From Elusimicrobiota bacterium (GTDB lineage Bacteria; Elusimicrobiota; Elusimicrobia; UBA1565; UBA9628), in NCBI GenBank assembly GCA_016212825.1, contig JACRDS010000026.1, positions 31,413 through 95,412 of the forward strand: a stretch of DNA of 64,000 bases, in the 5' to 3' direction. Shown one piece after another: positions 23,662 through 33,751 of the stretch. The notes under the pieces were generated by a model. That model was given only the letters and a program-made list of their open reading frames with translations, had not been told where the DNA came from and searched no databases. Both the position numbers and the translations under genes were made by a program. Every line of letters begins with the position of its first letter. The stretch's first letter is position 1.

Positions 23662-24539
23662 GGTTCGCATATTATCCCGGTTGCTCGCTTCATTCCACGG
23701 GCCGCGAGTACGACGCGTCTTTCCGGGAGGTGTGCGCCAGACTCGGCTTGGAGCCGGACGAGGTCGAAGGCTGGACCTGCTGCGGCGCTTCCAGCGCGCA
23801 TGCGACCTCGCGCCTTCTCTCGGTGGCGCTGGCCGCGGACAACCTCGCCCGCGTCGAGACCGCGGGTCACAAGGACGTCGTCGTGCCGTGCGCCTCGTGT
23901 TTTTCAAGGTTCAAGGACGCCACGCACGAGATCGAGAGCGATCCCGGCATGAAAGCCGAGATCGGCGGGATATTGGGACGGCCCTTCTCCAATTCCGTGA
24001 AAACCATCCACCCGCTGGAACTGCTGGATAAGATGGGAGAGGAGGGGAGGCTCGGGGCGGCGCCGGTCAAGGAGATGCCGGGAGTGAGGGCCGTCTGCTA
24101 CTACGGCTGCCTCTTGACGCGCCCTCCCAAGGTCACCCAATTCGACGATTGCGAGTACCCTATGAGCATGGATAGGCTGCTCGGGAGGTTCGGCGTGCGG
24201 ACGCTGGACTGGTCGTACAAGACCGACTGCTGCGGCGCCGGTTTTGGATTGACTAGGCCCGCGATAGTCTGCAAGCTGGTCAAGAAGATCCTGGACAATG
24301 CCTCGGCGGCGGGCGCCAATGTCGTGGCGGTCGCCTGTCCATTGTGCCATGCCAACCTGGATTCCAGACAGGCTGATTTGAACCGCGCCGGCGGCAACGG
24401 CGCAGGCCCAGGCGCGTACAAGATGCCGGTGCTCTACTTCACGCAGTTGATCGGGCTGGCCCTGGGCGCGGCGCCGGAGAGTCTGGGCCTGGGGAGCCAT
24501 CTGGTCGAGACCGCTCCAGTACTGGGAATGATGAGATGA
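23658..24539 (+). CDS. Heterodisulfide reductase subunit B-like protein (two CCG cysteine-rich domains)
   Basis: Motifs WTCCGAS...VVVPCASCF and DCCGAGFG...VACPLCHANL. Confidence 0.8.
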   Translation: MRFAYYPGCSLHSTGREYDASFREVCARLGLEPDEVEGWTCCGASSAHATSRLLSVALAADNLARVETAGHKDVVVPCASCFSRFKDATHEIESDPGMKAEIGGILGRPFSNSVKTIHPLELLDKMGEEGRLGAAPVKEMPGVRAVCYYGCLLTRPPKVTQFDDCEYPMSMDRLLGRFGVRTLDWSYKTDCCGAGFGLTRPAIVCKLVKKILDNASAAGANVVAVACPLCHANLDSRQADLNRAGGNGAGPGAYKMPVLYFTQLIGLALGAAPESLGLGSHLVETAPVLGMMR

Positions 24540-25453
24540 GCGAAGCAAAAACCAACGACGGGAAAATCGGAGCCGCTCTGGTCGTCGGCGGCGGCATAGG
24601 GGGAATGCAGGCGGCCCTGGATCTGGCCGACTCCGGCATCAAGGTCTATCTGGTCGACAAGGAACCGTCCATCGGCGGAGTCATGGCCAAGCTGGACAAG
24701 ACCTTCCCCACCAACGACTGCGCCATGTGCACGATGGCGCCCAGGCTCGTGGAGGTCGGCAGGAACAAGGATATCGAGATTATCTCGCTGGCCGATGTGG
24801 AGAATCTCAGCGGCGGACCTGGCAATTTCACGCTGACCTTGCGCAAGAAGCCGCGTTTCGTGAAGGAGGACAAATGCACCGGTTGCGGCACCTGCGTGAC
24901 GAATTGTCCCGTGCGAAACGAGATCTATCTGGACGTCAAGCTGGATGAGATAAAGCTTGAGGACGCGGATATGTCCAAGACGACGGCGATACTGGAACGG
25001 TACAAGGGCAGGAAAGAAGACCTGATCGCTATTTTGCAGGACATCAACGCCGAGTACAGGTATCTGCCGGAATTCGTGCTGAAATACATGGCGCGCAAGT
25101 TGGATGTGCCTTACAGCCAAGTATACAGCATCGCCACTTTCTACACCGCTTTCAGCCTGGTGCCCAAAGGGAAATACAAGATTTCCGTGTGCCTGGGAAC
25201 GGCCTGTCATGTCAGAGGGGCTCAGCGTATCATGGAGAGCCTGGAAAGAGAGCTGGATATCAAGAACGGGGGGACGACCAAGGACATGTTGTTCAGCCTG
25301 GAATCCGTCAGGTGCATCGGGTGCTGCGGTCTGGCTCCGGTTTTCGCGATCAACGAGGAGCTTTACGGAAAGGTCTCGCAGGGGAAGGTCCCGCAAATAA
25401 TCGAAAAATACCGGAAGGCGGAAGTCAAGGACAAGGCCTATGCAAAAACTTAA
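24536..25453 (+). CDS. Fusion protein. The N-terminal about 130 aa is the first half of a HdrA FAD-binding domain. The C-terminal about 170 aa is a NuoE/HoxE-like thioredoxin-fold [2Fe-2S] subunit
   Basis: GAALVVGGGIGGMQAALDLADSGIKVYLVDKEPSIGGVMAKLDKTFPTNDCAMC and CTGCGTCVTNCPV are HdrA N-terminal hallmarks. SVCLGTACHVRGA...VRCIGCCGLAPV carries the NuoE Cys pattern. Confidence 0.7.
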   Translation: MSEAKTNDGKIGAALVVGGGIGGMQAALDLADSGIKVYLVDKEPSIGGVMAKLDKTFPTNDCAMCTMAPRLVEVGRNKDIEIISLADVENLSGGPGNFTLTLRKKPRFVKEDKCTGCGTCVTNCPVRNEIYLDVKLDEIKLEDADMSKTTAILERYKGRKEDLIAILQDINAEYRYLPEFVLKYMARKLDVPYSQVYSIATFYTAFSLVPKGKYKISVCLGTACHVRGAQRIMESLERELDIKNGGTTKDMLFSLESVRCIGCCGLAPVFAINEELYGKVSQGKVPQIIEKYRKAEVKDKAYAKT

Positions 25454-33400: not shown

Positions 33401-33751
33401 GGCGCCGCCGCGAGGGCCTCGGCGGTGGCGCTCAAGGGCAGCGTCGAGCTCGAGGCCAACGTTTCCCGGGTCCTCGACGAGAACTGCGACGGCTGCGCCT
33501 ATTGCGTGGACCCTTGCCCGTACAAGGCCATCACGCTCATCGAATACATGTTCAACGGCGCCATCAAGAAGACGGTGGAAGCCAACGAGAGCGTGTGCAA
33601 GGGCTGCGGGGTCTGCCAGGCCACCTGCCCCAAGAAGGGCATCGCCATAATGGGCTTCAGGCTGGAGCAGATATCCGCCATGGCCGAGGCCGCCCTGCAG
33701 GCGGGCGGAGCGCCGAGCGGAAAACCGGCCGAAGAGCTCGTGCGGCAGTAG
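30449..33751 (+). CDS. 1,100-aa multi-domain iron-sulfur flavoprotein. It has a NuoG/HydA-N-like 2Fe-2S plus [4Fe-4S] module, then the C-terminal half of a HdrA FAD domain, then a second complete HdrA-like unit with a C-terminal 2x[4Fe-4S] domain
   Basis: [49 protein letters not shown] (2Fe-2S). [11 protein letters not shown] / [41 protein letters not shown] (HdrA signature). [22 protein letters not shown] (FAD-binding motif). [25 protein letters not shown] (second HdrA signature). [12 protein letters not shown] / [12 protein letters not shown]. Confidence 0.8.
   Translation: [1100 protein letters not shown]

Follow-up and report, generated by a model that had tools for sequence, protein, structure and literature searches.

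The window analysed here, a stretch of 64,000 nucleotides from an Elusimicrobiota bacterium (assembly GCA_016212825.1, contig JACRDS010000026.1), carries between positions 23056 and 37455 a run of 16 genes, all on the + strand, which overlap by 4-31 nucleotides (nt) or are spaced by at most 52 nt. Given this spacing on one strand, we treat them as a single operon. The genome is metagenome-assembled, and the enolase encoded in the window matches an NCBI protein with the Elusimicrobia label at 100% identity. The operon unites genes for HdrB (with CCG domains), HdrC, MvhD and a [NiFe] hydrogenase, and two of its open reading frames (ORFs) are the subject of this work. ORF1 (24536-25453, 305 amino acids) joins an N-terminal piece of HdrA to a NuoE/HydC-type (BfuC) domain, and ORF2 (30449-33751, 1100 amino acids) joins a NuoG-N/BfuA-type module to a C-terminal piece of HdrA and then to a second HdrA unit. 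The analysis confirmed that HdrA is encoded in this operon as two complementary pieces.

Boundaries were mapped on the HdrA of M. thermolithotrophicus (5odc_A, 5ODC residue numbering). The N-terminal part of HdrA unit 1 occupies residues 1-127 of ORF1 (24536-24916), of which residues 12-127 align with 144-259 of the reference. This piece includes the GxGxxG fold that binds flavin adenine dinucleotide (FAD), the FPTNDCxxC motif (C62 and C65, the latter equivalent to Cys197) and the first cysteine motif of the inserted ferredoxin (C114-x2-C117-x2-C120-x3-C124-P). The frame then continues into a BfuC/NuoE/HydC-like [2Fe-2S] domain at residues 143-305 (24962-25453; Pfam 2Fe-2S_thioredx, E 7.7e-51), and residues 143-297 match HydC/NuoE of known structure (8a6t_C, E 2.5e-45; also 7p5h_C). 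ORF2 opens with a minimal BfuA/NuoG-N module, one [2Fe-2S] and two [4Fe-4S] clusters, at residues 1-195 (30449-31033); residues 8-191 match 9mqx_A (E 1.3e-38) as well as 8a6t_A and 7q4v_A, and, as read from the sequence, the module is without the motif for the His-ligated cluster, as in small BfuA. The rest of HdrA unit 1 follows at residues 197-515 (31037-31993), with residues 197-450 aligned to 259-511 of the reference. It contains the ferredoxin linker PIPFEF...PQAVP, the second cysteine motif (C231/C239/C242/C246), the CVGSRD and CSSVCC signatures and the C-terminal FAD motif. The two pieces abut at residue 259 with zero gap and zero overlap, and the break falls right after the first cysteine motif of the inserted ferredoxin. 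Unit 1 is therefore not one polypeptide: it is spread over two genes 5 kb apart, and its GxGxxG fold and C-terminal FAD motif come together only when residues 12-127 of ORF1 and 197-515 of ORF2 are combined. Linkers of about 15-20 residues tie the inserted ferredoxin to BfuC on one side and to BfuA on the other.

The remainder of ORF2 forms HdrA unit 2. An HdrA N-terminal [4Fe-4S] domain stands in mid-protein at residues 516-660 (31994-32428; reference residues 3 to about 130) and is followed by the unit 2 FAD domain at residues 661-1000 (32429-33448; Pfam and alignments) and by a C-terminal ferredoxin with two [4Fe-4S] clusters at residues 1001-1075 (33449-33673), all 8 cysteines of which are invariant. 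Residues 525-755 align with 3-234 of the reference, which takes in the N-terminal domain and the first part of the FAD domain, and residues 932-1075 with 503-642, up to and including the C-terminal ferredoxin. Unit 2 keeps both of these domains and its FAD domain is complete on its own, and both the inserted ferredoxin and the FPTNDCxxC/Cys197 motif are absent from it. No NCBIfam model reached its cutoff for ORF1 or ORF2, and Pfam found no GltD-like domain in either. An earlier note, made from the letters of this DNA, had proposed that HdrA is split, with its N-terminal part fused to NuoE and its C-terminal part behind a NuoG-like module, and the alignments to 5odc_A bear this out: the pieces are complementary, and ORF1 is without a complete FAD domain. 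Some details had to be redrawn. The note was right that ORF1 runs up to the first cysteine motif and then into NuoE in frame, but the share of the FAD domain is about the first quarter, not half; ORF2 does start NuoG-like and turn into HdrA, but HdrA resumes at the linker, about 35 residues before the second cysteine motif at which the note had placed it; and the second HdrA-like unit, described there as complete, is present without the inserted ferredoxin and the Cys197 motif.

Between the two halves lies a module of the kind that handles nicotinamide adenine dinucleotide (NADH/NAD+). The NuoF-like protein (25807-27627, 606 amino acids) is collinear over its full length with each of the solved BfuB/HydB structures (7t2r_B, 7q4v_B, 9mqx_B, 8a6t_B, 9n5u_B); its residues 14-603 align with 5-594 of 7t2r_B (E 3.8e-248), and Pfam recognises an N-terminal thioredoxin-like [2Fe-2S] domain, the site for flavin mononucleotide (FMN) and NADH, the NADH_4Fe-4S domain and a C-terminal pair of [4Fe-4S] clusters. 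The earlier note had counted the NuoF-like gene and five regulatory genes here, which is correct, but it missed a sixth, a thioredoxin-like [2Fe-2S] protein of 127 amino acids in the HndB position (25440-25823; weak Pfam match to PF01257). The intervening order is then NuoE, HndB-like, NuoF, NuoG-N, which is that of Hnd/Bfu operons. The HndB-like gene is found in many split loci and is missing from others. The regulatory genes (27597-30445; Pfam) encode, in order, a DRTGG protein, a CBS plus HATPase protein, a second DRTGG protein, a PHP protein and a HATPase.

Related loci were numbered from L001 onward, and the segments of ORF1 and ORF2 were mapped onto 84 of them. The split arrangement recurs widely. 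An ORF1 search returned at least 120 clusters at the 90% identity level, with proteins of about 295 amino acids that are 60-79% identical and have the identical set of fused domains; at the 50% identity level an exhaustive search gave about 8 full-length ORF1-type representatives, in two sizes of about 300 and about 420-436 amino acids. The ORF2-type partner was present in all 23 of the split loci with enough downstream DNA, and 4 more split loci are cut by contig ends, which brings the total to 27. MvhD follows the ORF2-type gene in every related split locus whose downstream DNA is present. The five-gene cassette is present in L001, L003, L007-9 and L020, absent from L010, L011, L013-15, L017-19, L021, L022 and L025; overall, about half of the split loci lack it or have it in reduced form. 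The split as such therefore does not include this sensor cassette, which is an optional accessory. In L005 (13136-14442), L006, L012 and L023 the NuoF-like gene is extended by a GltD/NfnB-like region of about 450-500 amino acids, which would bring an NADPH-type flavin module into the complex and hints that the phosphorylated cofactor, NADP(H), may also be connectable. The related loci come from Acidobacteriota, Ignavibacteriota, Latescibacterota, Spirochaetota, Planctomycetota and Cloacimonadota, and also from several Desulfobacterota, Bacillota, Altiarchaeales and Thermoplasmata, to which the window adds Elusimicrobiota. In public records the ORF1 type goes by "NADH:ubiquinone oxidoreductase subunit E" or has no name at all; an exact-sequence look-up of ORF1 gave no record, and a cluster look-up of ten relatives gave neither names nor accessions. 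As a result of this naming, loci in Acidobacteriota, Elusimicrobiota, Cloacimonadota and others read as plain Mvh-Hdr, and recognising the ORF1 type would be an annotation fix for metabolic reconstructions.

This recurrence decides the question of an artefact. A chimeric contig, a frameshift, or two ordinary HdrA paralogs mistaken for halves could in principle have produced the picture, and the G+C content at third codon positions (GC3) might be taken as a hint of foreign DNA, since it is 0.72-0.89 over 23056-33751 (hdrC through ORF2) and 0.92-0.97 in the flanks, hydrogenase genes included. However, gene order and fusion points are identical in 27 loci (23 full, 4 at contig ends), which come from at least 10 phyla and from different studies, with contigs of 168 kb to 8 Mb among them; the reading frames are intact, and the genes overlap by 4-31 nt on both sides. 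The GC3 dip is better explained by horizontal transfer of the whole module than by a mis-join, and it suggests that the Hdr-Bfu block was acquired in this way by the Elusimicrobia genome. We give the artefact hardly any credence. Mis-assembly was rejected on the recurrence of the split in more than 25 independent assemblies, and ordinary paralogs were rejected because ORF1 holds HdrA residues 144-259 only.

We then considered whether the two halves form one domain. A chimera of ORF1 1-127 joined in silico to ORF2 197-520 gave a single local alignment with natural intact HdrAs over 95-100% of its length, at 50-64% identity. AlphaFold2, run on this chimera with an alignment of 61 natural intact HdrAs from a protein search, predicted a fold with a mean local confidence score (pLDDT) of 90.2 and a predicted template modelling score (pTM) of 0.88, without a dip at the junction, and Foldseek placed the model on 8rwn_A and 5odc_A with a TM-score of 0.90 and a root-mean-square deviation of 1.5-1.7 A over 432 columns. 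From the single sequence, without an alignment, the pLDDT was only 33. A stronger argument than the model is a natural variant in Thermoplasmata (L025, 244-5563), in which a canonical single-unit HdrA is split at the identical point. Its genes encode, in turn, a 417-residue protein with the N-domain, the N-piece and NuoE; NuoF; a 592-residue protein with NuoG-N, the C-piece and the C-terminal ferredoxin; and MvhD. No second or intact HdrA unit is found in this module, so that the two halves are the only HdrA it encodes, and the form is common to four clusters at the 50% identity level. The assembly of the unit 1 FAD domain from two polypeptides, one of two possibilities raised in the earlier note, is thus supported by complementary boundaries, conservation, co-occurrence, the chimera and the Thermoplasmata variant; it fits every test that we ran, all of them on sequences or models.

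Conservation also bears on whether this split domain works. In an alignment of 18 ORF1-type sequences the invariant positions cluster in the HdrA piece (the FAD glycines, DKTFPTNDCAMC and CTGC..C...CP), which is better conserved across the family than the NuoE part; the four cysteines of the BfuC [2Fe-2S] cluster (C219, C224, C260 and C264) are invariant as well. Every cysteine predicted to be a cluster ligand in ORF2 is invariant in 20 family members. These include the 12 cysteines of the BfuA module (C40/51/54/70, C129/132/135/139 and C170/173/176/180) and C329, C340, C344 and C345 of unit 1, together with Lys350, the equivalent of the lysine at flavin N5 (K409 in 5ODC). In unit 2 there is no variation at C818, C829, C833 or C834, and conservation at K839 is 85%; no other segment of the family is as conserved as the N-domain of residues 516-660, with a mean column identity of 75%. 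Moreover, three Desulfobacterota loci (L017, L018 and L040) have an in-frame TGA at the Cys65 position (FPTNDCAM*IISP), which presumably encodes selenocysteine. One could imagine that the HdrA piece of ORF1 and the half-unit of ORF2 are inactive relics kept as structural glue, and that only unit 2 binds a working FAD. A complete second unit is indeed present in ORF2, and in the fused HdrA dimer of class II benzoyl-CoA reductase (BCRII) one of the two FADs was judged non-bifurcating and mainly structural (preprint 10.64898/2026.04.10.717634). Yet the FAD glycines, the FPTNDCxxC motif and all eight cysteines of the ferredoxin are invariant or nearly so, the flavin-N5 lysine equivalent is invariant, the Cys65 position carries the presumed selenocysteine in three lineages, and the Thermoplasmata-type variant is without any second unit. 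We therefore regard the relic explanation as very improbable.

The order of the backbone, once the inserted genes are set aside, is N-piece, C-piece, N-domain, unit 2 and C-terminal ferredoxin, followed by MvhD. Fused or tandem HdrA has been described in anaerobic methanotrophic archaea (ANME), in Moorella and in BamE (PMC9012536; preprint 10.64898/2026.04.10.717634). Judged by its domain order, the backbone is such a known pseudo-dimer, and an Hnd/Bfu-type module sits inside one loop of it. Among the related loci the inserted ferredoxin of unit 1 occurs in three states: unsplit in 56, one of which (L003, 3457-6477) lies in the same genome as a split copy; carrying in cis a GltD/NfnB-like insert of about 1.5 kb, as in HdrL, in 22, of which L028 encodes 1523 amino acids; and split by Bfu genes as in the window in 23 plus 4 partial. 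The GltD/NfnB-like insert was found, for example, in L026, L028 and L033. The two interruption sites are about 30 residues apart, the split falling after "CPV" and the NfnB-like insert after "PFPQAVPxxxxI". Compared over 859 columns, the split protein of an Acidobacteriaceae locus (L010) shares 88% identity with its HdrL-type counterpart in L026 and 83% with the one in L028, both from Acidobacteriota, against only 64% with ORF2 of the window. L010 and L026 have a common, syntenic operon context, and L028 too lies in a syntenic operon. This degree of identity in a common context indicates that the module at the inserted ferredoxin has changed between close relatives, and the exchange may plausibly have come about by recombination in the conserved flanks of hdrA. 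The second possibility in the earlier note, an ancestral hdrA interrupted by an NADH module and a sensor cassette, holds in outline: unsplit tandem relatives exist and the inserted genes have Hnd/Bfu order, but the cassette is optional and a single origin is not shown by the trees. An operon inside a gene would be a rare kind of gene split, here in a flavin domain with predicted shared Fe-S clusters.

The other genes of the operon are those of an Mvh-Hdr system. Upstream of ORF1 lie an HdrC-like gene with two [4Fe-4S] clusters (23056-23661; Pfam Fer4_17/Fer4_8), which overlaps hdrB by 4 nt, and an HdrB-like gene with two CCG domains (23658-24539; Pfam CCG in two stretches). The HdrBC features, two CCG domains and a Fer4 dicluster, are thus present in Pfam; the NCBIfam model CoB_CoM_SS_B matches HdrB with E 2.4e-41, below its curated cutoff, and for this reason a substrate of HdrBC is not assignable. 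Downstream of ORF2 follow an MvhD-like [2Fe-2S] adaptor (33755-34213; Pfam FlpD, E 5.5e-55), a conserved ORF of 65 amino acids (34219-34416; no family match in NCBIfam), the MvhG-like small subunit (34439-35413; Pfam Oxidored_q6) and MvhA-like large subunit (35436-36881; Pfam NiFeSe_Hases; NCBIfam VhuA, E 7e-133, below cutoff) of a [NiFe] hydrogenase, and a HycI-type hydrogenase maturation protease (36934-37455; Pfam HycI, E 5.9e-23). Both hydrogenase subunits adjoin the MvhD and Hdr genes, a feature of the Mvh type, group 3c, as seen in Pfam and in the neighbourhood. The 65-residue ORF between mvhD and mvhG (MTQSARFFDDKKFMWDGKVY...FLVYSRR) has homologs in L001 (19580-19795) and L003 (19817-20023); in L003 it lies after mvhD with no hydrogenase nearby, and the module may have in it a small subunit that has so far been overlooked. 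A LysR-type regulator (22019-22951, -) is divergent from hdrC. On the 3' side of the operon, a run of central-carbon genes (39936-52290, +) includes acetate kinase, an aminotransferase, phosphoenolpyruvate carboxykinase, citrate synthase, a malic enzyme-phosphotransacetylase fusion, malate dehydrogenase, aconitase and isocitrate dehydrogenase. A study of Cloacimonadota reported Mvh/Hdr clustered with genes of the reverse tricarboxylic acid cycle (PMC8542988). Further away, a 3491-residue ORF (1427-11902, +) matches only CarboxypepD_reg, FlgD_ig and fn3_3, near its C-terminal end, and is probably a giant surface protein, and two paralogs of prolipoprotein diacylglyceryl transferase (Lgt) stand in tandem and overlap (18571-19362 and 19347-20132, +).

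How might such a complex work? In canonical HdrA, electrons are split at the FAD; one exit leads to HdrBC, and the other runs over the N-domain cluster and the ferredoxin insert and ends at free ferredoxin (PMC9012536). In the methanogen enzyme Cys197 completes the N-domain cluster of the partner protomer, and in fused HdrAs Cys197 and the N-domain are complementary (PMC9012536). In Bfu complexes an N-terminal bundle of BfuC contacts BfuA (preprint 10.64898/2026.04.10.717634). On this basis we consider it probable that the split HdrA reassembles within a hard-wired Hdr-Bfu-Mvh complex in which Bfu stands at the low-potential arm. The ORF1 and ORF2 pieces would reassemble into a single FAD site, a structural reading that we hold to be strong on sequence and model, and three Fe-S clusters would be shared between the two chains: the two of the inserted ferredoxin, each with cysteine ligands from both chains, and that of the unit 2 N-domain, which Cys65 of ORF1 would complete. 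Such sharing would hold BfuBC tight against HdrA. Because low-potential electrons leave canonical HdrA through the inserted ferredoxin, the Bfu module may replace free ferredoxin as the immediate partner, and the short linkers to BfuC and BfuA, together with a BfuC bundle that touches BfuA, point to Bfu docking on the low-potential arm. We hypothesise the following flow. MvhAG and MvhD would pass electrons from H2 to the HdrA flavin; one electron would go to HdrBC and a disulfide, and the other through the shared clusters to BfuA and the BfuBC site, which would exchange with NAD(H) and ferredoxin. Depending on physiology, the flow may also run the other way. The whole complex would thereby link H2 (through MvhAG), a disulfide (through HdrBC), NAD(H) and ferredoxin, and the sensor cassette would be an optional addition for regulation, such as Bfu operons are known to carry. 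Since many uncultured anaerobes have this arrangement, it probably couples two different kinds of electron-bifurcating machine to each other.

Several points weigh against this proposal. We know of no established disulfide substrate of bacterial HdrBC. The assembly of the complex, its cofactor content and its activity are all deduced from sequence. The chimera prediction, made on an artificial fusion with an alignment of intact HdrAs, speaks for compatibility of the halves and not for the association of two chains. Split forms do not make one clade: the corresponding bipartition has a bootstrap of 0 in neighbour-joining trees of hdrN, hdrC, the 859-column tail and NuoF, so that we do not claim a single origin of the split. 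Finally, in BCRII Bfu feeds HdrA through the C-terminal ferredoxin and an MvhD-like subunit, not through the inserted ferredoxin (preprint 10.64898/2026.04.10.717634); since this one solved complex of Bfu with HdrA is wired differently, it is topology that argues for Bfu as partner of the low-potential arm here.

The last point leads to the main rival reading, which keeps the architecture and reverses the wiring: Bfu would be an input that confurcates NADH and reduced ferredoxin, with the hydrogenase or HdrBC as outputs, or with H2 and NADH/ferredoxin as alternative donors for disulfide reduction. BamGHI of BCRII is precisely such a confurcating input to the fused HdrA dimer BamE (preprint 10.64898/2026.04.10.717634), in Bam-like loci one operon holds NuoE-NuoF-NuoG-N together with MvhD and a tandem HdrA that is unsplit, and the module also occurs where no hydrogenase is adjacent, as in L003 and L012. 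However, the BCRII input passes through the C-terminal ferredoxin and its MvhD-like adaptor, whereas the covalent links of the window lie at the inserted ferredoxin, and MvhD is still there as a separate input adaptor. We regard reversed wiring as rather unlikely, though less so than either the relic or the artefact explanation. The hard-wired complex with Bfu at the low-potential arm has a bolder extension, in which the HdrA FAD and the Bfu FMN/Fe-S site act in series through clusters ligated by two chains, and the inserted ferredoxin serves as an evolutionary socket. We offer this tentatively, as a possibility that is less likely than not. If true, series wiring would give a two-stage "voltage multiplier" or a four-way hub for H2, disulfide, NAD(H) and ferredoxin, and the complex might be able to run on very little H2 or to attain unusually low potentials; NAD(P)H modules, the Bfu operon in trans and NfnB-like domains in cis, would have been swapped repeatedly at the socket through recombination of the hdrA flanks.

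The component families (HdrA, HdrBC, MvhADG and Bfu) are all known; it is the split of HdrA with fusion to BfuC and BfuA that is apparently new, and the split HdrA-Bfu family appears to be widespread and undescribed. The literature searched, which did not extend to the main HdrA review, yielded no account of an HdrA that is split and joined to BfuC and BfuA, and no described Bfu member with HdrA attached to BfuA or with BfuC fused to part of the domain attached to BfuA. Published work on Geobacter, on serpentinite Actinobacteria and on Antarctic Cloacimonadota refers to Hdr, Mvh or Nuo genes and says nothing of the split. There is a close likeness to MvhAGD-HdrABC of hydrogenotrophic methanogens (5ODC, 8RVU), which has the same HdrA FAD domain, [4Fe-4S] signature, both ferredoxins and N-terminal domain, and the same HdrB with CCG domains, HdrC, MvhD and [NiFe] hydrogenase. 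There, HdrA is one polypeptide and its inserted ferredoxin can freely meet soluble ferredoxin; here, HdrA is a tandem pseudo-dimer with unit 1 over two genes, and the inserted ferredoxin is covalently tied to NuoE-like and NuoG-like domains. In a bacterium, the substrate is presumably not the heterodisulfide of coenzymes M and B (CoM-S-S-CoB).

Fused HdrAs, as in MetFV-HdrABC-MvhD of Moorella and HdrA3/4 of ANME, likewise have two units per chain with a complementary N-domain and Cys197; in the window unit 1 has Cys65 without an N-domain, and unit 2 has the N-domain without the Cys197 motif. These proteins are unsplit, however, and the domain order described for ANME HdrA3/4 differs from that found here. 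HdrL of D. autotrophicum and HdrA9-11 of ANME-1 resemble the split form in that a pyridine-nucleotide module interrupts the inserted ferredoxin of HdrA (PMC9012536), on the same tandem backbone followed by MvhD. In HdrL-type proteins, though, this is a single GltD/NfnB-like domain in cis, about 30 residues later, and the gene is whole, whereas here a multi-gene Bfu set breaks the host gene in two. With the Bfu family (HydABC, HndABCD, NiFe-HydABCSL, Wor-Bfu, NfnABC and Stn) the window shares a collinear BfuB, the BfuC [2Fe-2S] domain, a BfuA with one [2Fe-2S] and two [4Fe-4S] clusters like the small BfuA of 9MQX, the order NuoE-HndB-NuoF-NuoG, and HATPase, DRTGG and PHP genes in the operon.

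BCRII (BamBCDEFGHI) is alike in combining Bfu-type BamGHI with the fused HdrA dimer BamE and the MvhD-like BamF, and Bam-like gene order occurs among the related loci (L043, L052, L054, L064 and others). Its subunits are all separate and intact, with BamE unsplit; its Bfu joins through the C-terminal ferredoxin and BamF; and it has a tungsten-enzyme output and an HdrD-like partner, in contrast to the HdrBC and hydrogenase of the window. Of the four known routes by which anaerobes obtain low-potential electrons, one is flavin-based bifurcation by HdrA and another is the Bfu mechanism. According to a 2026 preprint, no complex with two distinct bifurcating modules had been reported before its own work on benzoyl-CoA reductase. 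The split HdrA-Bfu family would add another such complex, one that occurs far more widely, has a link to H2 and has its coupling laid down in gene structure; it would offer structural biologists a defined target.

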